DNA of 64,000 nucleotides from assembly GCA_963726455.1 (NCBI GenBank), contig CAVSCK010000004.1:1024001-1088000 (forward strand), written 5' to 3'. This document shows, piece by piece, positions 8,718 through 62,467 of this stretch (the stretch's first letter is position 1; the number at the start of each line of letters is the position of its first letter). The notes under the pieces were generated by a model. The model made no database searches and had not been told where the DNA came from. It saw only the letters and a list, made by a program, of their open reading frames with translations. This stretch comes from an uncultured bacterium (lineage in GTDB: Bacteria; Zixibacteria; MSB-5A5; CAIYYT01). The translations under genes and the position numbers were made by a program.

Positions 8718-8733
8718 AGCAATCCGTGTGCCC
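8718..8733 (-). promoter_or_regulatory. Sigma-54 (-24/-12) promoter
   Basis: Minus strand GGGCACACGGATTGCT vs consensus TGGCACGNNNNTTGCW, exact GG-N10-GC spacing. Confidence 0.6.
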
Positions 8734-8873: not shown

Positions 8874-10250
8874 CTACGAGATGTCTTTGAGTTGGTATTC
8901 GTTGATCAGTTTGTAAAGGTGGGTGCGGTCGATTTGCAGCACTTCGGCGGCCCTGACCACGCGCCCCTGGGCGAGATTCAGGGCTTTGATGATACACTCG
9001 CGGCGAAACTCCCTGGTCATGTCGTCCAGAGAGCGCAGGACGGCGCCTTTTTCGATCCAGAAATTGCCGAGCATGGCTTTGAGTTCATCGACACCGATTT
9101 CCGGTGAACTGGACAGAATCACTATTCGCTCGATGGTGTTCTCTAACTCACGGACGTTTCCGGGCCATTGATATTCGAGCAGGAGATTGACGGCCTCGGG
9201 CGCCAGACGACGGGCGTAGCCATTGCACTGCCGGGATTTGATCTCAGTAAAATGAGCCGCAAGCACGGGTATGTCCTGCTTGCGAGCACGCAACGGAGGA
9301 AGTTCAAGTTCGATTACTTTCAGGCGATAGAGCAGGTCTTCGCGGAACTTGCCATCCTTGACAAGTGAGCCCAGATCCTGATTGCTGGCGGCAACAATAC
9401 GAATATTGCAGCGGTGATTCTCGTTGTCGCCGACACGGCGATATTCGCGCTCCTGAATCAGGTGCAGCAGCTTGGCCTGTAGTGCGAGCGAGGCGTTGGT
9501 AATTTCGTCGAGAAACAGTGTGCCGCCTTCGGCCTCCTCGACAAGGCCGGCGCGATCAGCCAGAGCGCCTGTAAATGCTCCTTTGCGATGACCGAACAGT
9601 TCGCTTTCTGCGAGAGTGTCAGCCAAAGTTCCGGAGTCGATGCAGACGAATTTAGCCTCGCGACGGCGACTGTGGTAATGTATTTGCCGCGCGACGAGTT
9701 CCTTGCCGGTTCCGCTTTCGCCGGTGATCAGAACGACGCTGTCGCTGGGGCCGACACGTTGTATTTGTTCTCGCAGCGTACCGATCGCCGGACTGCTGCC
9801 GATGATTTCATATTTCCGGCGAATTTCGTTGAGGAATGAGCGATTCTCGCGTTTCAAGCGACCGCTTTCGATGGCGTTGCCGATCGTTACCATCGTCTTG
9901 TCGCGCTCGGCCAATTTGTCCAGATAGTCGAAAGCGCCTAGTTTCGTGGCTTCAATAGCGGTTGGAATTGAACCCTGGCCGGTCAGCATCACAACCGGAA
10001 GCAACGGATCAACAGCTTGAATGGCGCGCAGGACATCGACACCGTTCTTATCGCCATGCCCCCAGTCGAGATCGAGAGTCACGAGATCGTATTCGCGCTC
10101 GGCGACTGACTTCGCCACCTTGTCGATGTCGGTGATCACGTCGGCATCGTATCCCCTATTGACCAGCATCTGCCGAAAGCCATTGGCGAACGCCGGTTCA
10201 TTGTCGGCGACGAGAATCAAGCCCTTGCTTTTGGCGGCATTGTCAATCAT
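8874..10250 (-). CDS. Sigma-54-dependent NtrC/Fis-family response regulator
   Basis: REC domain; GESGTGKE, ESELFGHRKGAFTGA, WPGNVRELEN; C-terminal HTH. Confidence 0.95.
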   Translation of the reverse strand: MIDNAAKSKGLILVADNEPAFANGFRQMLVNRGYDADVITDIDKVAKSVAEREYDLVTLDLDWGHGDKNGVDVLRAIQAVDPLLPVVMLTGQGSIPTAIEATKLGAFDYLDKLAERDKTMVTIGNAIESGRLKRENRSFLNEIRRKYEIIGSSPAIGTLREQIQRVGPSDSVVLITGESGTGKELVARQIHYHSRRREAKFVCIDSGTLADTLAESELFGHRKGAFTGALADRAGLVEEAEGGTLFLDEITNASLALQAKLLHLIQEREYRRVGDNENHRCNIRIVAASNQDLGSLVKDGKFREDLLYRLKVIELELPPLRARKQDIPVLAAHFTEIKSRQCNGYARRLAPEAVNLLLEYQWPGNVRELENTIERIVILSSSPEIGVDELKAMLGNFWIEKGAVLRSLDDMTREFRRECIIKALNLAQGRVVRAAEVLQIDRTHLYKLINEYQLKDIS

Positions 10251-15531: not shown

Positions 15532-15929
15532 GTGTGACCTCCGAAAATTAGTTAATACGGTTGTTCGAGATTTCGTTTTCAAGGGATTATGAAAAGCTAA
15601 TTGACCTCGCTTGATGTCTGAGCGGTCCCCAATCATTCTCCGAACATTCGGAGCGTTCCCGTCGTCCCTTACTGAAAGCACATTTCAGTCCGACGTCGAC
15701 GCATTGCTGCCGTTACCGGTCGTCGGGATACGACTACCGGGCAGACCCCTGTGATGCTGTGAAAAGCGAAGTTGTGGTGATCTCAGGTCTGCGACTTCCA
15801 AGAAGCCGGACTCGTAATCAAAATCACCCAAGCTCTGATTTTCTGATTTACGCAATTAACCTAAGTAATGAACGTCTGTTTGTCAACCTATTTTGCCATG
15901 TTCTGGAAGATTATCTGCTAGAATTGAAG

Positions 15930-15947
15930 AAAGCCGGTGAAGGGACT
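15930..15947 (+). repeat. att site (displaced 3' end of tRNA-Thr)
   Basis: Identical to 30244-30261. Confidence 0.92.
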
Positions 15948-16026
15948 GCACACATTAATGCACTTTCAATTCCCCTGTCGATCAAAATAGTTTCGAAAAG
16001 GCGAATAGCGTAGTATCGTCGCGCTG

Positions 16027-16572
16027 ATGATAGTGCGAACACGACAGCGACCGCAAAATGAGCCTGAGCGGCCGTGGATACTGGCTACTCACAAAGGCGA
16101 TTACGGAAAGTTGCTTCTCGCAGCGCGGCCATTCCAGAAGTCACTTTGTATAGTCCGGCCCGCCATCAAGAGGACGTCACCAAGAATTTCCTATGAGCCG
16201 CTCTATTTCGATTATGTCTTCCTGAGAGCATTGTCGGGCAGCCTGTTTGTCACGATCAAACACCTTCCGGTAAAGGTAGTCTGCTTGGGCGACAAGACTC
16301 TGTCGATCACACAGGCGGAAATGGATAAGATCACTGAGATTACTCGGACTCTCGCCTATCAAGCCGCTCACCCACCGGGGGCGCAAGAATTTGTACAGGA
16401 ACACAAGGGCAAGCAGGTCACCATCACCGGCGGCTCGGCGTGCGGAATGTCCGGTATCGTCGATTCTGAGGCCAGCACGCGGGACGTGTTTGTCAGGATC
16501 GCGGGCCTGCGAATACGGGTGCCGATGGACAGGTTGGATGTTGAGACTGTTGGCGTAACGTCTTCCCCTTGA
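16027..16572 (+). CDS. NusG/RfaH/UpxY-like transcription elongation factor paralogue
   Basis: EPLYFDYVFL (cf. xPLFPGYVF of the NGN domain) and KOW-like GKQVTITGGSACGMSGIV. Confidence 0.65.
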   Translation: MIVRTRQRPQNEPERPWILATHKGDYGKLLLAARPFQKSLCIVRPAIKRTSPRISYEPLYFDYVFLRALSGSLFVTIKHLPVKVVCLGDKTLSITQAEMDKITEITRTLAYQAAHPPGAQEFVQEHKGKQVTITGGSACGMSGIVDSEASTRDVFVRIAGLRIRVPMDRLDVETVGVTSSP

Positions 16573-17016
16573 GCCTTCTGCCGCTTCTCTACGATTATGC
16601 CCTTATTGATGTACCCGTTGTTTCTGAACGATTCTTCGCCTTTTTAGGTGTCAACTTTGTCAAATTTGCGATACGCTTGTCTCTGTTACTTCTCTGCTTA
16701 TCAGTGCTCATGTCGAATTATCCGGGGCGTCCGGCAGTTGTCCGATGGAATCGGACGACTTACACAAATTCCCCGCGAATCATTGTTAATTCGTTGTTCT
16801 CAATGCCTTCCTGAAGGCGGCATTTTCCCCACCAAAACAACAGCATAGCATTGACATTTATCTCTCCTAGCCTGATATTGAGGTCACGTTCACGAAGTAG
16901 AGCACAAATCTAATTGCAGTCTGGAAGCTGATCACGTCCAGGCGCAACTCCTCTGAGTGCGCAGAGTGTCCTGCTGGAACCTCAGCCGCAAAGACCGAAG
17001 GGAGACAATAAAAATC

Positions 17017-17562
17017 ATGTTGGGAAAGATACTGATTGCGGCGGTATTGACGTTTTGGCTGCCAGCCGTCGGCGGGAATCTCACAGTCACGGTGGATACT
17101 GGCATGGCCTTGAACGGCGGCTTATCCAGCCTAAACTTTCATAGCCGACTCAGCGTGTTGAAGATCGTAATTAATGATGATGCTTGCCCTGCCCAATTGA
17201 CAGAAGCGGGCCTGTGGCCGAACAACAATAAGGTTGACTTTCTGTTCTCGACCACCGGCAAACTAACTTCACTGGATAGCATCGATGCTGTTGACATCAC
17301 ATTCCTCGCCTATGATTATTTTGACCGTGCTATACTGAGATTCGCGACGCCAGAAGCATTCTCCCTGTCGCCCGGTAAGGAGATGGATATTGGCAAGCTA
17401 ATGGGGCAAGTCGTCAACGAACGTCAAAGAAGACTATTATTCAAGTCTGTCACCTTTGTTTCTGCAATCAGAAGAAAGGACGGAAGCCTTTGGTTCGCAG
17501 ACGAATCAGCAATCATTGCGCTCGTCAAATCGCTGAATCTCGAATTTCCAACGCAAAACTAA
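17017..17562 (+). CDS. Hypothetical secreted protein
   Basis: RBS gaagggag; signal-peptide-like MLGKILIAAVLTFWLPAVGG. Confidence 0.6.
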   Translation: MLGKILIAAVLTFWLPAVGGNLTVTVDTGMALNGGLSSLNFHSRLSVLKIVINDDACPAQLTEAGLWPNNNKVDFLFSTTGKLTSLDSIDAVDITFLAYDYFDRAILRFATPEAFSLSPGKEMDIGKLMGQVVNERQRRLLFKSVTFVSAIRRKDGSLWFADESAIIALVKSLNLEFPTQN

Positions 17563-17578
17563 AATTGGAGAATCAATC

Positions 17579-17959
17579 ATGTTCAAGAGATTTTCGCTGA
17601 TCAGTCTTGTCGCAATTCTGTCATTGTTGTTCGCCTGCACCGGCAAACAAGGGCCGACGGGGCCGCAAGGTGATAAGGGCGATCCGGGCGATCCGGGGAC
17701 GGGAACTCGAATTGTCTATCAAAGTACCGCACCCGCAAACAGCCAGCAGTTTGTCGTGATGATCCCAGAGATTGACACCCACGATATGCCGTCAGTCACC
17801 GCGTATACCGCCACGACAACTTATCCGAACTCTTGGTTTCCAATTCCGTTGTATGTTTCTGGCGGGCCGGACTTGGGCGCATGTTTCATCGTTGAAACCG
17901 GAAAGGTTACGCTCGTGAATTGCAGCGGCCTTCTCTACAAGATTGTCATTGTGATCTGA
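17579..17959 (+). CDS. Small lipoprotein with collagen-like Gly-X-Y repeat
   Basis: Lipobox LFAC followed by GKQGPTGPQGDKGDPGDPG. Confidence 0.75.
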   Translation: MFKRFSLISLVAILSLLFACTGKQGPTGPQGDKGDPGDPGTGTRIVYQSTAPANSQQFVVMIPEIDTHDMPSVTAYTATTTYPNSWFPIPLYVSGGPDLGACFIVETGKVTLVNCSGLLYKIVIVI

Positions 17960-18108
17960 TGCGCGTTTGCCGGTGATCCTGGAGGTCAATACTGACTTGA
18001 CGATGGAAATGAGTTGCCCCTTGCCCGGCGGAAGACTCTGAAAATAAATAAAGAAAACTAAAGGTTTTTAGTTGCGTCGCCGATGACATTTGCGTATATT
18101 GGGTGAGA

Positions 18109-18291
18109 ATGAAAACAGGCACAACCGCGAAATCAGATCGGCAGCTTATCAACTTCGAGATTGAACCAGAGCTGAAGGCACGTCTTGAAACTCAGGCCAA
18201 GAGGGAGCATCGCACTCTCAGCGGTCTAGTAAAGCATATCATTCTGTCGTACTTGGAGTCTCGGGAAAGCGAGAAGAAACGTAGCAGATAA
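18109..18291 (+). CDS. Ribbon-helix-helix (Arc/CopG-like) DNA-binding protein
   Basis: INFEIEPELKARLETQAKREHRTLSGLVKHII pattern. Confidence 0.75.
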   Translation: MKTGTTAKSDRQLINFEIEPELKARLETQAKREHRTLSGLVKHIILSYLESRESEKKRSR

Positions 18292-18379
18292 GTAAACGGC
18301 GATGCAGACCAGGCACGGTCTACACCGCCTTTGAGAGGCTCAAATGAGCCAGTACACAGTATAACTTGAGAGGTATCAA

Positions 18380-18757
18380 ATGACAACCCGCAAATCTACA
18401 ATCCCCGCCAACGGTCACAAAGACTCGAACCCGTTCCTTACCGATGAAGAGCAGAGACAAGCTATCAGTGGCCTCCAACTCGCTTCATTTGGTCTCGAAG
18501 AGGCAGCGAAATTTGAGAAGCTGGTGGAAGACAGGAGGCGCAATCCCAACTGGCAAAAGGAATTCAAACCCGCTCCCACCCAGCCGTCAAATAGAGAGCT
18601 CCGCAAGTTTCTCAGAGGGAATGAGAGACGTCGTTTCGACGGGGCTATCTCGAAGATGGATTCAGCGATAAGACTGATGAGGGGCAGCAGCGGTCTCCTG
18701 TCGCAATACAGGGAACTCGCCACTAAGAGAATGAATCAGGCCGGAGGCGCGCTGTGA
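18380..18757 (+). CDS. Hypothetical protein
   Basis: RBS gagagg; stop overlaps the recombinase start (GTGA). Confidence 0.55.
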   Translation: MTTRKSTIPANGHKDSNPFLTDEEQRQAISGLQLASFGLEEAAKFEKLVEDRRRNPNWQKEFKPAPTQPSNRELRKFLRGNERRRFDGAISKMDSAIRLMRGSSGLLSQYRELATKRMNQAGGAL

Positions 18758-19695
18758 ATTCAAGTATTACTCAGACCACTCTGCCGAGCACTAACAGTGT
18801 CGGCTTTCAGCAGCTTATCGATGCTTTTCTGTCCCGCCGAAGTCGAGAGACTCGGCGGGCTTACTCAAAGGACTTGGCCGACTTCGCGACGTATCTTGAA
18901 GTCGCTGACAATGAAACTGCCCTACTGCGGCTCGTGTCCAGTGGCCAAGGACAAGCGAATTCGATGGTCATGGGTTACAAGACGGCGCTGATCGAAGGCG
19001 GCAAATCGCCGAACACGGTCAACCGCCGACTGGCAACCTTGCGCTCGGCCGTCAAGTTAGCAATCACGCTCGGACTTGTGAACTGGACAATAAGCATCGA
19101 AAACGAGCGAGTCGAAGCCTATCGGGACACGACCGGGCCAGGCATTGAGGGATTCAGGAAACTACTCAGGTATTCGGCTCTTTCGGCACCGCCCTTTATG
19201 GGATCTCGGAATACCGCAATTCTGCGGTTATTGTTCGACCTGGCGCTTCGGCGCGGAGAAGTTGCCCAACTCGACTTGGCCGACTTGGACATCGACAACG
19301 GCACTATTCAGGTCATTGGCAAAGGTCGGAGCCAGAAAGCCACTCTGACACTGCCAGCGGCAACATGCGGGGCTTTGAGAGCTTGGCTCATGGTCAGAGG
19401 CGCCCAACCGGGGCCGCTGTTTAGGAACTTTGACCGGGCGCGCAAAGGCAACCGGCTGACCGACGGTGGAATTTACCGGATGGTGCGAAACCTGGGGCGC
19501 AAGATCGGTTTGGTAGTCCGACCTCACGGCTTGCGCCATGCCGCGATCACAAAGGCGCTTGACCTCACCGGCGGCAACGTCCGTAGCGTGCAAAAGTTCT
19601 CCCGACACCGGAACATGCAGACCTTAATGGTCTATGACGACAACAGACAGAATCTCGCCGGTACAGTCTCAAATCTGATTGCCGAGGCGGTTTAA
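18754..19695 (+). CDS. Tyrosine recombinase (XerC-like, no arm-binding domain)
   Basis: SAM-like N-terminus; catalytic R (LRRGEV), K (GKG), HGLRH, SRH...Y (LMVYDD). Confidence 0.92.
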   Translation: MNSSITQTTLPSTNSVGFQQLIDAFLSRRSRETRRAYSKDLADFATYLEVADNETALLRLVSSGQGQANSMVMGYKTALIEGGKSPNTVNRRLATLRSAVKLAITLGLVNWTISIENERVEAYRDTTGPGIEGFRKLLRYSALSAPPFMGSRNTAILRLLFDLALRRGEVAQLDLADLDIDNGTIQVIGKGRSQKATLTLPAATCGALRAWLMVRGAQPGPLFRNFDRARKGNRLTDGGIYRMVRNLGRKIGLVVRPHGLRHAAITKALDLTGGNVRSVQKFSRHRNMQTLMVYDDNRQNLAGTVSNLIAEAV

Positions 19696-19760
19696 ATTCG
19701 GTAGAATATGAGCACGGAAACCATCATTATCAGGCTCATATTCAGCCGGGGAAGTGAACT

Positions 19761-19994
19761 ATGAGTAGCGTTTACATGACCACAGCACAAGCCGCCGAGC
19801 GCCTGCAATACAGTTATAGCCACTTCGTGAGGGTCTTATTGCCAAAGTTGCCGGGCGTCATCAGAAATGGCAAGAATGGCGCTTATCGAATTCCCGTCGC
19901 GTCGTTGGTCGAATTTGAACGAAAGCATTTGGTCACTCACAACCCGGATTCGAAACCAGCAGCCTTTCGAGGGGGCACTGAGCAGAAGGAATAA
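19761..19994 (+). CDS. Helix-turn-helix (excisionase/MerR-like) protein
   Basis: YMTTAQAAERL...GAYRIPVASLVEF. Confidence 0.7.
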   Translation: MSSVYMTTAQAAERLQYSYSHFVRVLLPKLPGVIRNGKNGAYRIPVASLVEFERKHLVTHNPDSKPAAFRGGTEQKE

Positions 19995-20020
19995 TCAAGA
20001 GACATTCAAGTGGCTCAATA

Positions 20021-21400
20021 TTAGCTCCCAGCATTGGGTGACCTGAGAATTCTCTCCAGCTTCCGCCTGCTGATCCCCAACGCCCTCATAGTCGCACTCT
20101 TGTTGCCGTTATTCTTTTCCATGACAGCCGTCACAAAACGCTGTTCGAGCGTCACGATCGGCCAATTAGTATCAGCAACAAAACGGTGTGTGGGAGCGAT
20201 CTTATTGGGCTCGGCGATGGTTTGAGTCCCTTCAAAATTCATTGCCCACTTGGAACCGTATCTTCGAAAGAAATCGAGGGGACTTTCATCCGGGATATAA
20301 GTATCGAGCGGATTCTCGTGAATCTTTCGTTTGGCCGCTTTGATGAGGAACTTCTCTGCGAGCAGACGATAATCCTTCTCGCCAAAAGCGAGTATTGTTT
20401 CTCTACTCCACGCCCACTTCTTGAGTGTGCTCCGGTCAATGAACGAAAGTTGCCATCGGAAGGGATTCAGTCCAGCGAAACTTATGTCGGCCGCAAGCCA
20501 TCTTTCGGAGAAATACTCCCCCCCGAAGTAAGTGTCGGCATCGAGAAACCAACTGTAATTTCCTCGCCAGTGCTTCCACATAGGATGAGACCAGCGATGC
20601 CTATCGATACAGATATATCTCAGTACTTCATTCTTCAACTGCCGCACGTTGCCCTCCCATTCGTTCATCAGAAGTATGTGGACCAGAGCAGCCGGAAATA
20701 GGTCTATTCTTGCGATCTTCTCGTCGGCGCAAAATTCGTCGCAGAAATGCAGGAATAACTCTACCGCGTCAAGTCTTCTGTTTCTAAGGGGTTCCACTTC
20801 TATCTTCAATGGAAATCGCCAATACAGATCAGGACGGATTCCATATCTCCAGTCGTCTTCATTATTTCCTGTGGTGACACCACCACCGGCGTTCTTGACC
20901 GGCCGATTTGTTGCCGCAATGATTCGGCAATCAGACTTCTTGATTTCTGGAGACCCGAGTTTGTGGTATTCGCCCGACTCTATGAAACGGAGGATTTCTC
21001 CCTGAACCGACGAATCCAATCCGCCTATTTCATCGATAAAAAGAGTGCCTCCATTCGCCTCGAATACGAGGCCTTCCCTGTTCTCGGCACCAGTGTAAGC
21101 CCCTTTCTTGCATCCGAAAATCTGGCCGTGCGCCAACTGAGGATTTCCCTGAAAGTCGTACGAATTTACCGGCAGAATTCTTCCGCCTCGATTTCGGTCA
21201 CTCTTCTCATGCAAAAGATGCGCGACAACTTCTTTGCCAACACCCGACTCCCCCACGATCAGCACCGGCTCCCGCCGCGGAGCGTAAAGCTCGACATCGC
21301 CGCGCACTTGAGTCGTCGGTCCACTGCTACCGATCATCTTCTGTCTGGATACTTGGGTTTTCTCGGGTTGAACCGTCACTTCATTATGTGCGTTTTGCAT
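20021..21400 (-). CDS. Sigma-54 enhancer-binding AAA+ protein lacking an N-terminal regulatory domain
   Basis: GESGVGKE, FGCKKGAYTGA, TLFIDEIG, RIIAATN, WEGNVRQLKN; Trp-rich insertion; Fis HTH NGNKSATMRALGISRRKL. Confidence 0.88.
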   Translation of the reverse strand: MQNAHNEVTVQPEKTQVSRQKMIGSSGPTTQVRGDVELYAPRREPVLIVGESGVGKEVVAHLLHEKSDRNRGGRILPVNSYDFQGNPQLAHGQIFGCKKGAYTGAENREGLVFEANGGTLFIDEIGGLDSSVQGEILRFIESGEYHKLGSPEIKKSDCRIIAATNRPVKNAGGGVTTGNNEDDWRYGIRPDLYWRFPLKIEVEPLRNRRLDAVELFLHFCDEFCADEKIARIDLFPAALVHILLMNEWEGNVRQLKNEVLRYICIDRHRWSHPMWKHWRGNYSWFLDADTYFGGEYFSERWLAADISFAGLNPFRWQLSFIDRSTLKKWAWSRETILAFGEKDYRLLAEKFLIKAAKRKIHENPLDTYIPDESPLDFFRRYGSKWAMNFEGTQTIAEPNKIAPTHRFVADTNWPIVTLEQRFVTAVMEKNNGNKSATMRALGISRRKLERILRSPNAGS

Positions 21401-21500
21401 AATATGGTTCCTTTAGCTTAAGCATTTCGCTAAGGCCAAGCTAACACAAGTTAATAATAACGCAATCACTTTCTTCCAGACATCAGCATAATCCTTTGCA

Positions 21501-21513
21501 CATCAAGCAGTTA
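21501..21513 (+). promoter_or_regulatory. IHF-binding-like site
   Basis: CATCAAGCAGTTA vs WATCAANNNNTTR, just upstream of the -24 box. Confidence 0.45.
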
Positions 21514-21531
21514 TTTACGCGCCTTCCGGTT

Positions 21532-21547
21532 TGGCTCGGCTCTTGCT
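21532..21547 (+). promoter_or_regulatory. Sigma-54 (-24/-12) promoter of the element's main rightward operon
   Basis: TGGCTCG-GCTC-TTGCT, one mismatch to TGGCACG-N4-TTGCW. Confidence 0.75.
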
Positions 21548-21583
21548 ATACATACGGGAATGAAGCGATCCAAAGGAGATAAG

Positions 21584-21796
21584 ATGAATCAGTTTCGCTT
21601 GAAAAGAGTGCGGCTGGGGTTGACCCAGTACGACCTGTGGAGGGAGACCGGCATACCGCAATCTCGGATTTCGCTACTCGAACGCGGCTTCTACGAATTG
21701 AAGCCAGACGAAGACGAGAGGCTGAGATCGGTGTTGAAGATGCGCCCTCGGACTCCCAAAAATGACAAAACATCACTTGGCGCAACGGCTGCGTGA
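21584..21796 (+). CDS. XRE/Cro-like HTH protein
   Basis: RVRLGLTQYDLWRETGIPQSRISLLERG; RBS aaggag before ATG 21584. Confidence 0.85.
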   Translation: MNQFRLKRVRLGLTQYDLWRETGIPQSRISLLERGFYELKPDEDERLRSVLKMRPRTPKNDKTSLGATAA

Positions 21797-22002
21797 ACTT
21801 GAGGAACCCAGTGCCGCGACAAAGGCCACAGACGAAAGTGAATGTCAACCTCGGGACACCTAACCCAGACGGCCTTGCTCTGCTTGTCAACTTCGTTTCG
21901 ACCCGACTCGTGGTATCGATTCTCCAAAGTAACCAAGAACACAACCAAGAGGGCGACACCGTTGGGAGCCCTTCACCGGAAAGGAGTTCACAACGTGTGT
22001 AG
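21793..22002 (+). CDS. Small hypothetical protein
   Basis: GTGA overlap with the HTH gene, operon-like packing. Confidence 0.35.
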   Translation: MNLRNPVPRQRPQTKVNVNLGTPNPDGLALLVNFVSTRLVVSILQSNQEHNQEGDTVGSPSPERSSQRV

Positions 22003-22213
22003 CAAACTCGATTCGTTCAAAGAGTTTGTCCTCCGAGGTCACAAGTTAATCAGCGAGGGACAGGCCGACAAAGCTTTGTCTCTTGCATTCTGTCTACTCG
22101 ACAGCTTGGGCAATGTGGCGTTTCGCGAACAGGAACCTAAGAGAGCGTGCGTTTCCAAAAGCGTGCAGCCTTCGAATTCGAAACGAATTAACCAAATACA
22201 AAGGAAGAGGTAA
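21995..22213 (+). CDS. Small hypothetical protein
   Basis: RBS aaggag at 21981, GTG start. Confidence 0.45.
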   Translation: MCSKLDSFKEFVLRGHKLISEGQADKALSLAFCLLDSLGNVAFREQEPKRACVSKSVQPSNSKRINQIQRKR

Positions 22214-22217
22214 AACG

Positions 22218-22667
22218 ATGACAGGCGAGATCAAGGTACTCGGACAAAAGCCAGTTCAAGTCAGCTTGGCAGGACAGGAATTCACCATCTATCCGGCGAC
22301 ACACTATCGGATGAATCAGATCCTTGAGTGCGCCGCAACGGCGAGAGCAAATTCGGAAGCCATGCGCAAAGCAGAGGAGACCGAAGATGCGGCAATCAAA
22401 GCGCGGGGCGAAGAAATCCCCATCAGACCACTCAAGTCGACGCCGGTCGATTACGGAATTCTCCGGCTTATCTGCAAGGCTCCAGACACTTTCGAGAACA
22501 GCAAATTGGTTGAAGGCAAGGTTCCCGCTGTACTGACCAACGAATTCTGGAGCCAGCAAGTCCAGACGGCGGAAATAGCGGGCTTATTCGAGGTCTTTGT
22601 GTCCCTGCTTGACATCGACAAGCTCATTAAGAACGCTCTCTCACTCGTGGGACAGACCCGTGTGTAG
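22218..22667 (+). CDS. Putative tail assembly chaperone-like protein
   Basis: 149 aa with N-terminal VSLAGQEFTIYP strands then helices; directly upstream of the tape-measure-like gene (positional inference). Confidence 0.45.
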   Translation: MTGEIKVLGQKPVQVSLAGQEFTIYPATHYRMNQILECAATARANSEAMRKAEETEDAAIKARGEEIPIRPLKSTPVDYGILRLICKAPDTFENSKLVEGKVPAVLTNEFWSQQVQTAEIAGLFEVFVSLLDIDKLIKNALSLVGQTRV

Positions 22668-22715
22668 CCCCATGACAGAAGATGACTCGGATTTTCCAAA
22701 AAACTTGGAGCGTAA

Positions 22716-25504
22716 ATGCCCGGTGTAGTTGACATCCTGAAATATGTGTTGGAGCTGGACTCCGGCCAACTCAAAGCCGAAGCGAAACAATCCGACACAA
22801 TAATCAACCAGTTGTCAGGCACAATCAAGGGCGCGCTTGTTGGCGCATTGGGTGCCGCCGCTGTTGGTTTCGCTACGGTCAAGATCGGCGAATTTCTGAA
22901 AGATGCCACCCTGACGGCGGCACGTACCGAAGTGTTGGGAACTGTCTTGCATCAGGTCGGCAAGGTGGCGGGTGAATCAAGCGGATATCTTGACGGCTTA
23001 GCCGACAAGGTTGAGGCGCTAGGGGTCACTACCCAAGCAAGTCGCACTCTGCTTATTCGACTGATGCAGTCTCATCTTGACCTTGCCTATGCCGTGAAGA
23101 TTGCGACAGTTGCGCAAGACTTAGCCGTAGTCGCTGATCAGAATTCCTCTGAGGCCGCCGAAGGAATTACGATAGCAATTGCCAAAACCGATGTTGAGCT
23201 GTTGCGGCAATATGGTATCGTCATTAACGCAGAGCGACTATTCAAACAGTACGCCCAGACAATCAATAAATCAGCGTCCGAACTTTCCGATCTCGACCGT
23301 CGCACGGCGATTGCTAACGAGGTATTTCGCCAAGGGGCTGCCTCCGCTGGTACTTACGAAGCGGCAATGGCTGATGTCGGCAAGCAGATAACATCAATGC
23401 CTCGATACGTCGAGGAGATGAAGAACGCTCTCGGAAAGGGGTTTCTCCCCCTGCTCGCTGACATTGTGCATTTACTTCGCGACGCCACAGTCGGCCTTAC
23501 CGATTTTCTGACACCGGCGACAGAACTAAAAACAGCCGAACTAAACAAACTACAGTCAGAATTTAGCAAGATCACTGGAATCTTACCTGACTTGGTAAAG
23601 GAATTTGTAAATCTATCCACCAAGACAAGACTCACCAACACCGAACAAGATCGGCTCCTTACCATTCAGCAACAGATCGCCGCGCTCGCTCCCGGCTATA
23701 TCACAGCACTCAACGATGAGGGTATGGCGCTCGACCTTAACGCCAAATCCTTAGCCAACTACACCGGATTGCGCAAGGAACAGATTGAAACTATTAAGAA
23801 TGATCTGATTTCAGCACTGTTAGCGGAGGAGGAGGCACAAGATCGCGCCAACAAGAAGAACCTTGCTGCGATTGAGAATTTCAAGAAGATAGCCGCTTCG
23901 AACAAAGCTGCTGGTGTTAAGGTTGGCTATGGCATCCCAGGCCAAATCAATGAGATAGTGATCGAATTGTCGAAGGGCATCCAGCGCTCACTTGAATTAC
24001 AACAGCGCATCGCGGCACTTGGAAGCGAGGGGAGGATGCTGCCAAGAAAATTGAGAAGATACCAGAAGACCTGAAAATCGAGATCAAATTCGGCAGCGAG
24101 AACTTGTCCTCCGCCGAGGAGCAGATAAAGCGCATTCAGTCATTAGTCGAGGCGGTTCAATCCCAATTCGGCGACCAAGGGATTACGCCCGATAGCGACA
24201 AGTTGATTGCGGCATTGCGGTCACTTATCAATTCGGAAGCGGCGATGCTTTCGACCGATGCCCAGAGGATTATCATTGACGCACTCAACAAGGCGCGGGA
24301 CAACCAACGCAGTGATGCTAAGTCGAAATCCGATCAGGAGCGATATTACAAGGACATACAGGAGAGCGAAGCCAATGCAGCGAAAGATCGCCTCAATGAC
24401 ATAGAAAAGGAAAAGCGGGCGCGTGTAAATGCAGCCGTCGATGTCGCTGACGCCCTTGGTTATGCCGCTACCAATTTCTTTGGTCTCTTCGATGAAGGTA
24501 TTGCCCGAATCGCCTCGAATCTCAGTAACGCGATCAGTGGCGCAATTTCTGGATTCTCACAAGGCGGAGTTGCCGGGATTGCCGGAGCTATCGGCTCGAT
24601 TCTTTCAGGATTCGCTTCCCTTTTCAGCGGTGGAGCGGACAAGATTGTCGTGTCGCAATACGAATTGATCGAAGCCATCGAAAATTGGGAGTCTACCATT
24701 GAGACATTGACGCCAAAAGAAAAAACCGCGCAACAAGAGATGGCCGAACTCGGTATTGAGGCGGCCAGCAGATTAATGGGCAACGGTTGGGACTGGAATC
24801 AGATTGTGGCACTGCTCAGACCCCTATTTGAATCTGTCGGGTTATCCATTCCACAAGGCATTACATATGAGCAATTTCTTGGTTGGGGAAATGACATCAT
24901 CGCGGACATTGGCGCATCAAATGCACAAACGACCGCTGAATTGAAAGCGGATAATGCCGCGTCGCGCAGGGAACTTGTTCTGAGTCAAAAGACGGGAACT
25001 GACGCGCTTGAGACCATCGCCGATCTTGATAAACTCTATGCCTTGAGCCCCGAGGAATTGCATGCTCTCTATGAAGAAACGATGGCGAAGTTTGGTGACA
25101 AAATGTCAGATAGCGACAGAATCAACACACAGGCATTGATTAACGATTACCACAGAGGAGAGGCTGAGCGAGCGCAGAGCGGGGCCGGAGCCGAGCAGAC
25201 TCAGGCGTCCCGCTCGATTCAGAAAATAACCGAACGCCAGGTCGACTCGCTCATTTCCGCGTTGTCCACCATCGACCTGCACATAACCGAGGGCATACAG
25301 AAATTGCTCGATGGCATCCGCAACACGACTAACAGGACAACCATGAATGCGGCGGCGACTATCGAAGTGGCGGTAATCAACGCGGGTGTAATCAACACGG
25401 GGTCGATCAGAGTAGCGGGATCGATGAGTGGCAATAATGGCGCATCGGCGAATACGAAGCAATTACTTACTGTCGAATCACGCAGCCTAGGTAGGAGGGT
25501 GTAA
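22716..25504 (+). CDS. Phage tail tape-measure-like protein, split by a frameshift near 24030
   Basis: Ala/Gly-rich amphipathic helical segments, ELLRQYGIVI...SELSDLDRRTAIANEVFRQG core, IAGIAGAIGSILSGFASLFSGG segment; second frame open from ~24032 (EDAAKKIEKIPEDL...) into ORF 24104-25504. Confidence 0.72.
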
Positions 25505-25574
25505 GGCATGTCATCGGAAGCAAACACAGCGTGTGCGAGAATCACCGGAGTTGACTGTGTCTAACCGCGCAAAA

Positions 25575-25985
25575 ATGACACCTGAAAAAAGAGAGACGTT
25601 CCTCGCTACGCTTGAGACTACGGGAGGGCAGATAACAAAGGCATGTAAGGCCTGTGCTGTTTCGCGCGACGTAATCTATCGACTTCGCAAAAGTGATGAA
25701 CAATTCGGGAAAGACTTCGAAGCCGCACTCGACAAAGGCATTGACCTGCTCGAAGCGGAATGCAAGCGGCGCGCATTTGAAGGCGTTCCCAAACCCGTGT
25801 TCTATAAAGGCAAAGAGTGCGGGATCATTCAGGAATACTCCGATACACTTGCGATCTTCCTGATGAAGGCTCACCGGTCGAAGTACAAAGAGAAATTCCT
25901 ACTGACTGGTGAAGGCGGCGGCGCAGTCAAAGTCCTCGTTGAATATGTGAACAAACCCAATGGAGTGTATCGTGAAGTGTGTTGA
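25575..25985 (+). CDS. Terminase small subunit-like HTH protein
   Basis: FLATLETTGGQITKACK...EAECKRRAFEGVPKPVFYKG...YSDTLAIFLMKAHRSKYKE pattern of phage TerS-like proteins. Confidence 0.72.
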   Translation: MTPEKRETFLATLETTGGQITKACKACAVSRDVIYRLRKSDEQFGKDFEAALDKGIDLLEAECKRRAFEGVPKPVFYKGKECGIIQEYSDTLAIFLMKAHRSKYKEKFLLTGEGGGAVKVLVEYVNKPNGVYREVC

Positions 25986-26397
25986 CCTCAAGACAGTTTT
26001 CGGACGGAGATACAAGATTGCTGCTGATCCCTCGGCCGGGGCCCGCAACGTCGATCCGTGGTACTGGACTATCCCCTGCCGGCGCGGCGAAATCTATCCC
26101 TATGGCGGCGACTTCCTTTGTGCCTCGGTACGAAATGGGGCGGTTTCCAAGTCGATGCGCTCCTGGCCCGAGCTGACGGTTTTGCAGGACGCCGACGACG
26201 AGACAGTCTTCAAGTTTCACGTCAACAACTTCGAAAAGGTAGCTCAGGCCGTGGGTGCCAAGAAACGGCGGCGAATGTCAGTCGAGACCATGAAGAAAAT
26301 TGGTGCAGACACGGCGTACGTGACGCCAAACGGGGGTGAATTTCAACGATCTCCCCAAGGGGCGAGTGATTTGACACGGGGGGCAGTTCGTGTATGA
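25960..26397 (+). CDS. Hypothetical MGE protein
   Basis: Overlaps both neighbours; DPWYWTIPCRRGEIYPYGG...QDADDE motif; function unknown. Confidence 0.6.
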   Translation: MECIVKCVDLKTVFGRRYKIAADPSAGARNVDPWYWTIPCRRGEIYPYGGDFLCASVRNGAVSKSMRSWPELTVLQDADDETVFKFHVNNFEKVAQAVGAKKRRRMSVETMKKIGADTAYVTPNGGEFQRSPQGASDLTRGAVRV

Positions 26398-27022
26398 TTT
26401 AGACACCCTAAAGGCCGGCGTCACCATCGAGAACATCCTTGACGATTTCGGGATTGCCCACCGCCATCACAGGGCAGCCTGTCCCGTTCACCGTGGCGAC
26501 AATAGGTCTGCTTTCAGCTTCAACGATGAGGCTTTCTACTGCCACACCCAAGGATGCAAGGGCGGCGTTATCGACCTGGTCATGGCTCTGGCCGGGACTG
26601 ATTTCAGGGGCGCGCTGGACTATCTGGCTCGCAAGAAGGGAATCGCGAATGATTTCGGAATCACCGGGACGACTCAGTTTACAAGGAGTCTGCCTGACAA
26701 TTCTGATCCATTCAGGGAAGAAAGGAAACGGCTCTCACCAAAAGACTATGTGGAGTTGCTTTGTATGGCCGACGATCTTAACCGCGCTGAATCCGACCTC
26801 GCCGAATGCAGGAGTAACATTGGCACACTGACCGCCCAATTATCCCAACTTATCCACCTCAAGAGGCGGAAACAGATTGCCAAATCGCTGTACTACTTGA
26901 ACACACAGAAGATCGACGACAACCGGCTCGCACTGTTCGACGAGCAGGAAGCACAACTCAACTACAAGGTCAAAGAGATAAAGCGGCAAATCAGCGAGTT
27001 CAGGAAGAAGGTAAGGCAATGA
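26390..27022 (+). CDS. CHC2 zinc-finger (DnaG zinc-binding domain) protein with C-terminal coiled coil
   Basis: CPVHRGDNRSAFSF...FYCHTQGCKGGVIDLVM...FRGALDYLA. Confidence 0.85.
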   Translation: MYDLDTLKAGVTIENILDDFGIAHRHHRAACPVHRGDNRSAFSFNDEAFYCHTQGCKGGVIDLVMALAGTDFRGALDYLARKKGIANDFGITGTTQFTRSLPDNSDPFREERKRLSPKDYVELLCMADDLNRAESDLAECRSNIGTLTAQLSQLIHLKRRKQIAKSLYYLNTQKIDDNRLALFDEQEAQLNYKVKEIKRQISEFRKKVRQ

Positions 27023-28263
27023 TTAGCGACTGCGAAATTGACGCCGAGTTTTGCCAAGAGACCGACGCTGACATCGACCTGACGATACCCGAATCCGGCT
27101 TTCTCCTGAAATATTACAACCTAATCTGCCCTATCACAGAGGCGCCTGAAGTCTACCATCTGTTTATGGGAATGTCTTTGATCGCCGGTGTCCTCGGGCG
27201 CAAAGTGTTTCTCGACTGGACGGCTTACAAGATTTACCCGAACCTGTATATCATCCTGGTCGGCGCGTCTTCAGCAATCAAGAAATCGACGTCAATCAAC
27301 CAAGCCCGACCGTTTCTTAACGCCGTCGATCCCAACCTGATCTTTCCAAATGAATTCTCGAATGAAGCTTTCTTGGAGCTCCTTGTCACTCAGCCGCAAG
27401 GTTCGCTGTTCTGGGATGAATTCGGCGGCGTGCTCGCGACATTCGAGCGTTCGTACATGTCCGGTACCAAAGAAATGCTGACCTCGATGTTTGACTGTCC
27501 GAGTGACTATCGACGGTTGCTCAAAGGCAACGCCAAGAGCAAAGAGTCGGGCAAGGTCGTTATCATCCGGGAACCGTACATCAATATCGCCACTACTTCA
27601 ACCCTTGAGTGGCTCGTCAATCGGATCAAGGAACAGGATATCAAGTCGGGTTTCCTGGCTCGATTTGTCTACGTGCCCGGTAAAGAGCCGAGCAAACGAC
27701 TTTCGCGCCCGCCCAAATTAGATCAGAAGTTGAGGTCCGAAATCATCATGGAGTTGAAGGCTATTCGAGAGATTTCGGGCGAAGCGGAACTCACTGACGA
27801 CGCGTTTCTGTACTATGACACCTGGTACAACGGTGTCTTTGATCAGATACAGAAGGGCGACAATCGCGACAAGCTCTCCCCTTTCTTTAGCCGGCTACTG
27901 GTCTACGCTCTCAAATTCGCCCTGATCTACCAAGTGTCCGAAGATCACTCGCTGACAATTCAGGAACACAACATGATCAGGGCGTGTCAGTTGGTCGACT
28001 TCCTCAAGCGCAACATCAAAGACATGGTCGAAAATGAACTGGTTTTTGGTGTGGACGCCATTCAGTTGAAGAGAGTGTTGGAAGTCATCAAGTCAGAGGG
28101 TGCGATTGAACGGAGCAAACTTTTCACGCGAGTGAACTATCGAAAAGACATTCTCAACCGACTCATCGATACCCTTCTTGAGCAGGAACAGATTTCGGTT
28201 TCTCGGGAACAGTGGCACAAGGGGAAGAAGCCGAGAACGATTTACACCTATAACGGTAAGTGA
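27019..28263 (+). CDS. DUF3987/YfjI-like P-loop NTPase (replication helicase-like) with C-terminal winged helix
   Basis: PNLYIILVGASSAIKKSTS, WDEFG, SGFLARF motifs. Confidence 0.8.
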   Translation: MISDCEIDAEFCQETDADIDLTIPESGFLLKYYNLICPITEAPEVYHLFMGMSLIAGVLGRKVFLDWTAYKIYPNLYIILVGASSAIKKSTSINQARPFLNAVDPNLIFPNEFSNEAFLELLVTQPQGSLFWDEFGGVLATFERSYMSGTKEMLTSMFDCPSDYRRLLKGNAKSKESGKVVIIREPYINIATTSTLEWLVNRIKEQDIKSGFLARFVYVPGKEPSKRLSRPPKLDQKLRSEIIMELKAIREISGEAELTDDAFLYYDTWYNGVFDQIQKGDNRDKLSPFFSRLLVYALKFALIYQVSEDHSLTIQEHNMIRACQLVDFLKRNIKDMVENELVFGVDAIQLKRVLEVIKSEGAIERSKLFTRVNYRKDILNRLIDTLLEQEQISVSREQWHKGKKPRTIYTYNGK

Positions 28264-28290
28264 CAACCACTTAGGGCGCTTGAAAGGAAA

Positions 28291-28590
28291 TCAAAACTTT
28301 GGTAAATTTAGATAAACTTCGCGAAATGGTATGTTATGCGCAGACAATGAGTTACCATATAACTTCTAAACTACTAACTACTACTACTACTACTACAGGG
28401 GGCGCTGACTCACCTGAAATCAAAGGGAAAAAGAGGGAGAGATGCAAGAAGTTGTCGAAGTTTAGAAGTTTACACCTAAACCCTTTTATCTAATTACGAT
28501 ACCTATTCGCGAACATTTGCGAAGTTTACGACTGCTTCTGTTGCCCACTTGGACTCGGGGAAACAAGTTGCCAAAGACCTTTAGGGCGCA
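28291..28590. other. Putative replication origin (iteron-like repeats)
   Basis: GAAGTTTA/TAAACTTC octamers in both orientations, (CTA)n tract, ttagggcgc repeated at 28271 and 28581; non-coding and directly after the helicase-like gene. Confidence 0.5.
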
Positions 28591-28626
28591 TACTGTGACA
28601 CCGACTACCGAAAGGAATAACAGACG

Positions 28627-30372
28627 ATGAAGTGCGCCGTCTATGCCCGGTACAGCTCCGACATGCAGAAACAGACCAGCATCGAAGATCAGGTGCGGGA
28701 GTGTCGGCAGTTCATCGAGCACAGACAGTGGGAAGTTGCCGACGGCCGGGTGTACTCTGACTACGCCATCAGTGGAGCTGATATCAACCGCACGGGTTAC
28801 CAGGCACTCAAGGCAGACGCATACAAGAAACTGTTTGCCTGCATCGTAGTTGACGACTTATCGCGACTCGGAAGGGACGCCGGAGAAGCAATCCAAATCT
28901 ACGGGGAATTGACTGCCTATGGAGTTAACATCGTCTCTGTGTCGGATGGAATCGAAACGGCTTCATCTTCTTCGAAGATTCCCTACTACTTCAAGAGCAT
29001 TGCCAACGAACTCTTTCTGGATGAACTGAAGGCCAAGATCGTTCGCGGTCTCAAAGGTCAAGTCTCTCGCGGTTACTCTGCCGGCGGCCGGACCTACGGC
29101 TACTACTCCGAGCCGGAACTTGTTCCGGGTGGCGGCGCTGACAAATTCGGCAGACCTCGGCGGCACGGGGTTAAGATCAAAATCAATGAGAAAGAAGCGG
29201 AAGTCGTGCGAATGATCTTCCGACTCCGCGCCGATGGTCTTGGACAACGTGCGATTGCCACTCGCCTGAATGAACTGAAAATCCCTTCCCCATTTGCACA
29301 CGTCGACCACTTTAGCGGAACTTGGTCGCCCGACACGGTACGCCACATGTTGCAACAGCGGAGATATATCGGCGACTGGACTTGGAACAAGAGCCGGTCT
29401 CTCAAGAAGAATCCTCTCGGTAAGCGAATTGTCAGAGAGAAGACAGTCGACCAATGGATTGAACACGTCGACGAATCATTGCGGATCATTCATCAAGATT
29501 TGTGGGACGCTGTACTGGCGACATTTGCAGACAAAGAAACACGATTGCGGTTCACGCCGGGGCCGAAAGGTGTCTATCTCTTGGGTGGGCTGCTTAAGTG
29601 TTCTCGCTGCGGATCGTCACTTGTCGGAATGAAATCGAAAGGATGGACTGCCTATGTGTGCAGCGGCAACAGAAGTAAAGGCAAGGTGTACTGTCCAGCC
29701 TCACACCGACTACCGCTCATCGAGGCTGACTCCGGAGTTCTGCAAGGCTGCAAAGAAATTCTGTTTTCTGATGAAACACTCGCATTGATTTCACGCCAAG
29801 TCAACGAAGCGTTGGCGACTATCGAGAAGCAGACTCCCAAGCGGCGAGATCGCTTAGCGAGAAGACTCAACACTCTTGACACGTCCATTGAGCGCCTACT
29901 TGATTTTGCGGAGACTGAACCGAGTAGTCCTGCTCTTGGTGAACGCCTACGGACTCTGGAAGCGGAAAAGCGCACTGTCCAGGCCGAACTTGATGCACTC
30001 AAAACCGAAACCCGTAGGACTAACCGACTGTCCGAAGAGTTCATCAAGGCCAGTCTGCAAGGGCTCCTACCTGCCGTGAGCGCTGACGAAAGCAGCCGCC
30101 AGGAGCTGAAATTCATCCTCAGCAAGATGTTTCCGGAAAAATTGTCTGTCACGATTCGCGAAAAAAATGGCTATGTTGAGTTTGGCGTGCTTGGTAACCT
30201 AATGCCCCTCAATATCCTTCCGAAGGCTTCTGCGTTAATGTATAAAGCCGGTGAAGGGACTCGAACCCCCGACCAGCTGATTACAAATCAGCTACTCTAC
30301 CAACTGAGTTACACCGGCTTAAGAAATCTGCCTGCCCGTTTCAAGTACCGTCACTCCGACGCGCAGGATTAG
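28627..30372 (+). CDS. Large serine recombinase (integrase)
   Basis: YARYSS catalytic Ser, DDLSRLGRD, recombinase domain, Zn ribbon LLKCSRCGS...YVCSG...YC, coiled coil; 3' end crosses the att repeat and tRNA. Confidence 0.95.
   Translation: MKCAVYARYSSDMQKQTSIEDQVRECRQFIEHRQWEVADGRVYSDYAISGADINRTGYQALKADAYKKLFACIVVDDLSRLGRDAGEAIQIYGELTAYGVNIVSVSDGIETASSSSKIPYYFKSIANELFLDELKAKIVRGLKGQVSRGYSAGGRTYGYYSEPELVPGGGADKFGRPRRHGVKIKINEKEAEVVRMIFRLRADGLGQRAIATRLNELKIPSPFAHVDHFSGTWSPDTVRHMLQQRRYIGDWTWNKSRSLKKNPLGKRIVREKTVDQWIEHVDESLRIIHQDLWDAVLATFADKETRLRFTPGPKGVYLLGGLLKCSRCGSSLVGMKSKGWTAYVCSGNRSKGKVYCPASHRLPLIEADSGVLQGCKEILFSDETLALISRQVNEALATIEKQTPKRRDRLARRLNTLDTSIERLLDFAETEPSSPALGERLRTLEAEKRTVQAELDALKTETRRTNRLSEEFIKASLQGLLPAVSADESSRQELKFILSKMFPEKLSVTIREKNGYVEFGVLGNLMPLNILPKASALMYKAGEGTRTPDQLITNQLLYQLSYTGLRNLPARFKYRHSDAQD
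30246..30318 (-). tRNA. tRNA-Thr (anticodon UGU)
   Basis: Reverse complement GCCGGTGTAACTCAGTTGGTAGAGTAGCTGATTTGTAATCAGCTGGTCGGGGGTTCGAGTCCCTTCACCGGCT folds as a cloverleaf; CCA not encoded. Confidence 0.97.
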
Positions 30373-33418: not shown

Positions 33419-37077
<3,659 letters not shown>

Positions 37078-37158
37078 AAGTATTACCTTGACCTTTCCTG
37101 GACCGTGGATGTCGCCGTGAGCACCCATCTATCAATGAATATGACTGATGATTCTAGT

Positions 37159-46794: not shown

Positions 46795-46938
46795 AATTCC
46801 TTTCGCTACGGTTGGCGACAGTTGAACTGCTCCCATTCTCTTGTATCGTCATCGGCGGCAAAAGCTAAAGGGGACGGGTCAGTTGTGAAAACTACCGAAA
46901 TCGAGGAAGAGCCGGAATATTGTTGCGTTCTGAAACAG

Positions 46939-62463: not shown

Positions 62464-62467
62464 GATC

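Follow-up and report, generated by a model that had tools for sequence, protein, structure and literature searches.

The 64-kb window analyzed here (64,000 nucleotides, positions 1,024,001 to 1,088,000 of contig CAVSCK010000004.1, assembly GCA_963726455.1, from an uncultured Zixibacteria bacterium; all coordinates below count from its first base) contains a 14.3-kb island in which a gene for a bacterial enhancer-binding protein (bEBP) and a rightward operon diverge from a common intergenic gap. Our preferred reading of the sequence, to which we give a probability of roughly 0.55, is that this bEBP and a candidate sigma-54 promoter in the gap form a cognate pair that locks the rightward operon. 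The arrangement points to an activator, in place of a repressor, as the switch that turns the island on. The first-pass annotation had placed the bEBP in the position taken by the divergent Stl/CI repressor of phage-inducible chromosomal islands (PICIs), and the gene map agrees: the bEBP is the leftward gene of a divergent pair facing an operon led by a gene for an XRE-family helix-turn-helix (HTH) protein.

The bEBP gene (20021..21400, minus strand) encodes 459 amino acids in the longest open reading frame (ORF) possible in its frame. Pfam assigns residues 22-171 to Sigma54_activat (PF00158; E 3.2e-38, 131.5 bits against a cut-off of 20.2), residues 206-268 to AAA_lid_14 (35.3 bits against 27) and residues 418-450 to the Fis-type domain HTH_8. 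On the DNA, the AAA+ core occupies 20597-21337, the GAYTGA loop 21086-21103, a tryptophan-rich module 20150-20596 and HTH_8 20051-20149. The translation contains the Walker A motif GESGVGKE, the Walker B motif LFIDEIG and the GAYTGA loop at residues 100-105. With Pfam domains above their cut-offs and the motifs present in the translation, the protein is what the first-pass annotation had taken it for, an AAA+ bEBP with GAYTGA, Walker A/B and a Fis HTH. Also as annotated, it has neither a receiver nor a sensor at its N-terminus, since the longest ORF has its AAA+ core from residue 22 onward, which leaves no room for such a domain.

An alignment with 35 other bEBPs (n = 36) put G50, G53, G55, K56, D123, R195 and R253 of the protein in invariant columns, and Walker A/B, the arginine fingers and sensor II are intact. 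The AlphaFold2 model built on this alignment reached a mean predicted local distance difference test (pLDDT) score of 85 and a predicted TM-score (pTM) of 0.77; its first 250-265 residues superpose on the cores of NtrC1, FleQ, NtrX, FlrC, LuxO and PspF with E values of 1e-15 to 1e-18, and its C-terminus forms three helices at residues 415-453 (pLDDT 88-94). GAFTGA as well as GAYTGA loops occur among the closest relatives in the alignment, and a study of PspF reports that its F85Y variant retained binding to sigma-54 region I fragments (PMC3467059). In NCBIfam, the protein gave partial matches to many bEBP equivalogs, every score lying far under its cut-off. Because the domains are present while the equivalog scores fall so far short, we place the bEBP outside any named orthologue group. 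Judged from its predicted sequence, the 20021-21400 product has all the parts of a sigma-54 activator and no regulatory domain at its N-terminus.

We also weighed a view in which the protein does not activate sigma-54 here and is instead a DNA-binding ATPase or repressor, a role known for some sigma-54-independent members of the family, or an AAA+ enzyme for replication, packaging or defence. To our knowledge, the sigma-54-independent members of the bEBP family are without the GAFTGA loop, which argues against this view, as do the intact GAYTGA, Walker motifs, arginine fingers and HTH. PADLOC matched the protein only via the AAA+ core of RtcR-type models, and no CARF domain was found. On the other side, the protein is divergent (131 bits on Sigma54_activat, compared with 215 and 204 for two chromosomal bEBPs in the window), has an additional loop of 10 residues at 166-188 that is modelled with low confidence, and matches phrog_7998, a family of unknown function (E 4.5e-23). 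A bEBP-like AAA+ phage protein without GAFTGA and HTH has also been described in a preprint (bioRxiv 10.64898/2026.10.06.757011). We consider it very improbable that the bEBP is anything other than an activator acting with sigma-54.

The candidate sigma-54 promoter TGGCTCGGCTCTTGCT (21532..21547, plus strand) has a single mismatch to TGGCACG-N4-TTGCW, matching 11 of 12 bases. It lies inside the 160-nt gap beside the bEBP gene, at a distance of 132 bp from where that gene starts and on the strand opposite to it, ahead of the XRE gene and on the strand of the operon, and it stands 37 nt ahead of a start codon with a Shine-Dalgarno sequence; with the GC placed at -13/-12, transcription is predicted to start near 21558. 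In the window as a whole, 23 sites match at 9 or more of 12 bases with GG and GC intact, and TGGCTCGGCTCTTGCT is the sole one at 11/12; the same window scan found no further site of at least 10/12 to the -24/-12 consensus in the island. The near-consensus -24/-12 box facing the operon, as annotated at 21532-21547, is thus borne out in match, position and strand.

We estimate the chance of such a match in a 160-nt gap on the correct strand at about 1e-3, from either the shuffle rate or the rate at bEBP loci. In 80 unrelated bEBP loci, 19 sites of at least 11/12 occurred in 1.3 Mb, and their density close to the bEBP gene (8 in 362 kb within 2 kb of it) was about double that farther away (11 in 954 kb). 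This enrichment agrees with the fact that bEBP genes are commonly found beside their own target promoters. A consensus scan, which covered canonical promoter types only, found no sigma-70-like promoter in the 160-nt gap.

A second -24/-12-like site, TGGCTCAATATTAGCT (20011-20026, plus strand, 9/12), shares the TGGCTC hexamer with TGGCTCGGCTCTTGCT. Situated in the 26-nt gap after an ORF with similarity to HTH_17, it is directed into the 3' end of the bEBP gene in antisense orientation. As 17 sites in the window score 9/12, we treat it as probably a chance match.

Two other motifs lie in the intergenic DNA. An integration host factor (IHF)-like site, CATCAAGCAGTTA (21501..21513, plus strand, one mismatch), has its centre some 51 bp upstream of the predicted start. 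A dyad with 7-bp arms, TTAGCTT (21413-21419)-N18-AAGCTAA (21438-21444), spans 21413..21444 with the inner palindrome GCTTAAGC; it is a candidate activator-binding site centred about 129 bp upstream of the predicted start, in the bEBP's own 5' leader. These positions would suit a bend site and an enhancer, which is compatibility and not evidence, and the placement of the dyad in the leader may allow autoregulation. The first-pass annotation had drawn on both motifs (the palindromic tract at about 21410-21445) in proposing that induction is positively gated. Both are present as described, but neither is better than expected by chance, as set out below, so that what stands of the proposal is a complete activator facing a near-consensus box.

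Several observations weigh against a cognate pair. The window contains 2 matches with at most one mismatch to the promoter consensus; 100 shuffles gave 0.70 on average, and two or more turned up in 20 of them. The sigma-70 scan covered canonical promoter types only, in a host that looks like a member of the Fibrobacterota-Chlorobiota-Bacteroidota (FCB) group, given its type IX secretion system (T9SS) sorting domain and BACON domain. The IHF-like site was equalled in 363 of 2000 intergenic shuffles and has 45 such sites in the window; the arm length of the dyad was reached in 316 of 2000 shuffles, and a repeat finder at its own thresholds reported nothing for it. HTH_8 in the bEBP passed narrowly, at 23.4 bits against a cut-off of 22. 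The window contains no rpoN gene. Calling the operon one for replication and packaging rests on the small terminase subunit (terS), primase and helicase genes, with family-less ORFs standing between the XRE gene and terS.

The assembly itself adds a further caution. Several chromosomal genes in the window are split between frames: a MetE-like gene in three ORFs (61499-63434), a bEBP gene (45486-46836) and pieces of a pyruvate:ferredoxin oxidoreductase (35340-37128), which suggests assembly indel errors or pseudogenes. Since genes in the window are split by frameshifts and database copies of the island bEBP are truncated, base-level errors in the assembly are a real possibility, although the island bEBP ORF is intact. 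Finally, the evidence comes from this one locus.

Part of this evidence could also be taken to mean that the -24/-12 match is fortuitous, that a housekeeping-sigma promoter under the control of the XRE protein (Cro/CI-like) drives the operon, and that the bEBP is a cargo or accessory regulator of other sigma-54 promoters in the host or elsewhere. About 0.7 matches with one mismatch or fewer are expected per window, the IHF-like site and the dyad are at chance level, an XRE regulator heads the operon as in classical switches, and regulators of the conjugative transposon CTnDOT are reported to alter host chromosomal expression (PMC1976400; PMC3809561). We nevertheless hold a fortuitous match to be rather unlikely, because the place and strand of TGGCTCGGCTCTTGCT within the 160-nt gap have that chance of about 1e-3, the gap lacks a sigma-70-like promoter by consensus, the adjacency of bEBP genes to their targets fits the twofold enrichment, and the island has no other site at 10/12 or better.

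If the bEBP and TGGCTCGGCTCTTGCT are indeed a cognate pair, the switch would work as follows. The leftward gene would supply a complete sigma-54 activator without an N-terminal sensor, and the rightward operon would start from the -24/-12 promoter at 21532-21547. Using its Fis-type HTH, the bEBP would bind at some point within the 131-bp spacer, assemble its AAA+ ring and open the sigma-54 closed complex, thereby firing the operon; transcription would then continue through the XRE gene, the family-less ORFs, terS, the primase/helicase genes and the serine recombinase gene. Sigma-54 promoters have no basal activity and are silent without their ATPase. The lock would therefore be tight, and the replication, packaging and recombination genes of the island would remain unexpressed until the bEBP had been synthesised or set free. 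As the bEBP is without an N-terminal domain, its control would most likely pass through the conserved tryptophan-rich helical module, through its own synthesis or, as with PspF and HrpS, through a partner protein in trans.

The module comprises about 150 residues (269-417) between the AAA+ lid and the HTH. Residues 262-417 contain 10 tryptophans in 156 positions, compared with 3 in the preceding 261, in keeping with the long tryptophan-rich insertion before the HTH that had been annotated. In the full-length model the module is mostly helical, with block pLDDT values of 53-95; folded alone it reached a mean pLDDT of 51, and this model was not good enough to search for similar folds.

When 1.84 billion cluster representatives were searched exhaustively with HMMER, 115,298 bEBP-like proteins were returned at E <=1e-3, and we took relatives of the bEBP from the best 150 of these matches. 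Among these 150, four proteins (P0124, P0125, P0126 and P0002) share its architecture: they have 451-491 residues, with 2-43 residues ahead of the AAA+ match, the module and the HTH. P0125, P0126 and P0002 match past the lid in a single stretch, to query residues 345, 326 and 357, respectively, and P0124 scores via two stretches. When the four are aligned with the bEBP, P313, W316 and R323 of the module are invariant. P0002, which according to one source derives from a Zixibacteria metagenome-assembled genome, is 36% identical to the bEBP over residues 22-392 in a pairwise alignment. Three more proteins (P0138, P0169 and P0177) are looser versions of the same architecture, and the module is thus conserved in only about 4-7 of the best 150 proteins. 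Two others (P0122 and P0163) are truncated fragments 99% identical to the window's own bEBP and are its only near-identical database copies among the matches listed.

Further searches added no relatives. A word-indexed protein search with residues 262-459 gave 322 candidates, none at E <=0.01, and one with a profile of the C-terminal alignment yielded 2 matches from 8000 candidates, each of them a sequence that the query alignment already contained. The ESM Atlas returned no usable match to residues 262-417. A BFVD fold search with the bEBP model found generic AAA+ proteins only, with TM-scores on the query of at most 0.41 and identities of at most 17% among the 50 matches listed. Full-length relatives were sought in phage records (63 matching) and in plasmid records (2566 matching), and in neither set did any match cover 80% or more of the query. 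The phage-record matches listed consist largely of bacterial contigs deposited as phage and of virome scaffolds that are unverified; one of them (L081) encodes a 510-aa bEBP with an N-terminal extension. A tblastn search with residues 265-417 found the module in 0 of the 80 bEBP loci, giving just 5 matches at E 2.1 or worse. These loci are the subset kept from at least 601 genome-contig stretches that fitted the five-sequence alignment, a set swamped by the generic motif W[PE][GR]NVR.

Bacteroidota bEBPs of 401-424 aa had appeared to cover 90-95% of the query and were tried as relatives; we rejected them, as the pairwise alignment of P0045 showed a non-homologous linker and no module. In four Bacteroidota bEBP loci (L006, L011, L022 and L047) the neighbouring genes are mostly co-oriented. 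On the alignments, then, the island bEBP represents a very small subfamily with an additional conserved module between the AAA+ lid and the HTH.

Two further bEBP genes of the response-regulator type lie in the chromosomal part of the window. One (8874-10250, minus strand) is preceded by a histidine kinase gene with FG-GAP and PAS domains, the pair spanning 8874-12715 on the minus strand; the other (45486-46836) is the frame-split bEBP gene mentioned above, in two overlapping ORFs. After the first, upstream of an unassigned 467-aa ORF (7009-8412), stands a -24/-12-like site, GGGCACACGGATTGCT (8718-8733, minus strand, 10/12), and the kinase/bEBP pair and GGGCACACGGATTGCT probably make up one sigma-54 regulon unit of the host. 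Sigma-54 is the only sigma factor with which bEBPs act. With two other bEBP genes in the window, the host therefore almost certainly has sigma-54.

Elsewhere in the chromosome, another -24/-12-like site (51746-51761, minus strand, 10/12) lies about 160 nt upstream of a GatE-like ORF. The GatD/GatE-type amidotransferase genes (48232-51589, minus strand) are of archaeal style and occur here in a genome with T9SS sorting-domain, BACON and dockerin proteins.

The island (about 15948-30243) sits at the 3' end of a tRNA-Thr gene and is flanked by direct repeats. The repeat 15925-15947 / 30239-30261 includes 18 identical bp at 15930-15947 and 30244-30261. The left copy (15930..15947), an attachment (att) core that duplicates the tRNA-Thr 3' end, marks the left boundary, and the right core (30244-30261) overlaps the 3' end of tRNA-Thr(TGT) at 30245-30319 on the minus strand. 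Inside the repeats the G+C content is lower, at 0.47-0.55 compared with 0.53-0.58 in the flanking 10 kb.

Its left part is a module of ORFs without a reliable family (16027-18757). The first of these encodes a 181-aa protein (16027..16572, plus strand) weakly similar to NusG/UpxY (NCBIfam antiterm_UpxY, E 3.8e-07, 30 bits, under the cut-off of 100). Between this module and the recombinase region that follows, a strong 14-pair hairpin with a T-rich tail (18298-18329, minus strand) may be the sign of a module boundary or of a genuine gene on the minus strand (18415-18723). Next come a 313-aa XerC/D-like tyrosine recombinase (18754..19695, plus strand; Pfam Phage_integrase E 2.6e-20; phrog_1 integrase) and a 77-aa protein with a weak HTH_17 match, possibly of the excisionase/AlpA-type fold (19761..19994, plus strand; 21.7 bits, under the cut-off of 27), both to the left of the bEBP gene.

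The rightward operon opens with the XRE-family gene (21560..21796, plus strand; HTH_3 24.2 bits, cut-off 23). Its ORF opens at 21560, the likelier start being the ATG at 21584, which is preceded by AAAGGAGA. Four ORFs without a family follow, of 123, 194, 452 and 466 aa (21842..25504, plus strand). The 452-aa product resembles virus-derived hypothetical proteins by language-model features only and gave weak tape-measure-like matches. The 466-aa product (24104-25504, plus strand) gave two unreliable matches, a faint one to region 2-4 of primary sigma factors (E 0.03-0.08, PDB sequences) and one to the PADLOC LeoBC model (E 6e-06).

Beyond these lies a 150-aa terminase small subunit homologue (25533..25985, plus strand; phrog_4044 E 2.4e-35). 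In a tblastn search with it, 87 phage records matched and 62 of them covered at least 80%; the matches listed are 32-36% identical, and most are annotated as terS. A 145-aa ORF (plus strand) separates terS from the replication module (26390..28263, plus strand), which consists of a primase zinc-ribbon protein (26390-27022, Zn_ribbon_DnaG) and a DUF3987 primase/helicase (27019-28263) and is matched by several primase/helicase PHROGs with E values down to 5e-30. After a 64-aa ORF (plus strand), the operon ends in a large serine recombinase (28627..30372, plus strand; Pfam Resolvase, Recombinase and Zn_ribbon_recom; phrog_95 E 1e-85). Among the genes with family support, that of the bEBP is the only one on the minus strand of the island, and all those downstream of the promoter are co-oriented and closely spaced.

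In the 581-residue serine recombinase ORF, the right att core falls at about residues 540-545, and the ORF then runs on antisense to the tRNA-Thr gene. Excision would alter its C-terminus, to a 566-residue product in the modelled junction, which would place attP inside the 3' end of the recombinase gene. Either of the two recombinases, the XerC/D-like enzyme in mid-island or the large serine recombinase beside the tRNA gene, could underlie the 18-bp repeat, and the island could be composite.

By its gene content the island appears satellite-like, with 14.3 kb at tRNA-Thr (PICI-type satellites have about 10-15 kb), a terS homologue, primase/helicase genes and recombinases. The combination of terS without a large terminase, a primase/helicase and an integrase in 14.3 kb at a tRNA gene is the hallmark pattern of phage satellites, going by the PICI features described in PMC6092414. 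An island with a genuine activator/promoter pair could still be something other than a satellite, namely an integrative island, possibly mobilisable or decaying, or a prophage remnant, whose bEBP answers a physiological signal. Our Pfam scan took in 22 ORFs, those of the island and 4 flanking ones, and recognised no relaxase or coupling protein, which counts against such an element. Pfam and PHROG searches likewise recognised nothing for capsid, portal, large terminase, lysis or the redirection of capsid size; the unassigned ORFs at 16027-18757 and 21842-25504 may include such genes, but as it stands this result favours it. So do the two recombinases and the left module of family-less ORFs, which differ from a PICI layout, and the window, in which no helper prophage was seen. 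bEBPs also normally answer metabolic or stress signals. On balance we regard such a non-satellite element with a genuine pair as possible, though doubtful.

The cognate pair can be extended to a fuller scheme, in which a satellite keeps its excision, replication and packaging behind a sigma-54 promoter that is opened by a sensor-less bEBP whose module detects a helper-phage product. Taken as a whole this is unlikely, and helper-phage sensing in particular is speculation on our part; by analogy with the induction of AlpA and with RtcR and the Gifsy-1 prophage, both discussed below, a helper-phage trigger is plausible.

The interest of the locus follows from how satellites are otherwise silenced, that is, by repressors that the helper inactivates (Stl) or by the need for small activators that the helper induces (AlpA). 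Because a sigma-54 promoter needs its ATPase in order to fire, it would give a leak-free lock and a new entry point for a helper phage or a host signal. If the fuller scheme is right, the island would be the first known case, among satellites and small mobile elements alike, of a zero-leak, enhancer-dependent sigma-54 induction switch. If the module is regulatory, it would be a new class of bEBP regulatory domain, located after the AAA+ core, and would broaden the known modes of bEBP control. We regard the locus as a good lead that can be tested cheaply, not as a demonstrated system.

The first-pass annotation knew of no satellite with this logic. In the literature searched, which holds few subscription-journal papers, we found no description of a sigma-54-gated satellite or PICI, and the sigma-54 route for satellites appears undescribed. 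Positive gating as such is not new, since AlpA already provides it for Gram-negative PICIs (PMC6092414), and element-encoded activators of excision cascades are known from RteB of CTnDOT.

Among known bEBPs, the island protein is most like PspF and HrpR/HrpS, in which an AAA+ core is followed by a C-terminal HTH with nothing ahead, and whose genes likewise diverge from the sigma-54 operon that they face. Proteins of this type are controlled in trans by a partner protein and not by an in-built sensor. AAA+ structures of PspF match the island model at E of about 2e-15. The island bEBP nevertheless scores 140.3 bits on the PspF equivalog TIGR02974, far below its cut-off of 443.55, and is not an equivalog; it carries a tryptophan-rich module of about 150 residues that PspF does not have, and no PspA-like partner was found by Pfam among the 22 ORFs scanned. 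It further differs from PspF, HrpR and HrpS in its mobile-element setting, facing genes for replication, packaging and recombination.

Phages and bEBPs meet in two other systems. Activation of RtcR requires a three-gene region of Gifsy-1, so that prophage genes can control the activity of a bEBP (PMC9879122). Unlike the island bEBP, RtcR is encoded in the chromosome and has a CARF domain as its sensor. The phage protein Htm is a bEBP-like AAA+ transcription modulator that is described as being without GAFTGA and HTH (bioRxiv 10.64898/2026.10.06.757011), whereas the island bEBP has both a GAYTGA loop and an HTH.

Among mobile elements, CTnDOT offers a parallel in its regulator RteB, which belongs to the NtrC family of sigma-54 activators. 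This element-encoded protein starts a cascade leading to excision and transfer (PMC3809561). Unlike the island bEBP, RteB is a response regulator with a sensor kinase and acts through RteC, and CTnDOT is a 65-kb conjugative transposon, whereas the island has 14 kb and bears terS.

PICIs provide the closest comparison for the island as a whole. In the account of Gram-negative PICIs in PMC6092414, these are small satellites at tRNA or att sites with integrase, pri-rep and packaging functions, and the island resembles them, EcCICFT073 for example, as a small element at a tRNA/att site with an integrase, a replication module and a packaging function. According to the same text, their cycle is switched on by the element-encoded AlpA, which helper phages induce, and not by the lifting of a repressor. 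AlpA is a small HTH protein for which that text describes no sigma-54 action, whereas the island has an ATP-driven bEBP and a -24/-12 promoter. The gene order also differs, with two recombinases and a tyrosine recombinase gene convergent with that of the bEBP.

The bEBP gene shares its map position with Stl/Rpr of Staphylococcus aureus pathogenicity islands (SaPIs) and other PICIs, as a leftward gene facing an operon for xis, replication and packaging (PMC6092414). Its logic would be the opposite: Stl is a repressor that a helper protein inactivates, whereas a bEBP is an obligate activator. The divergent pair has a bEBP in place of the Stl/Rpr of Gram-positive or the AlpA of Gram-negative hosts, the under-threshold HTH_17 match lying elsewhere in the island. 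As the protein falls short of the PspF equivalog score and the island is without a PICI regulator of the Stl/Rpr or AlpA kind, we file the locus under neither. It combines two known kinds of system, a sensor-less bEBP with a sigma-54 promoter and the switch of a satellite-like island.

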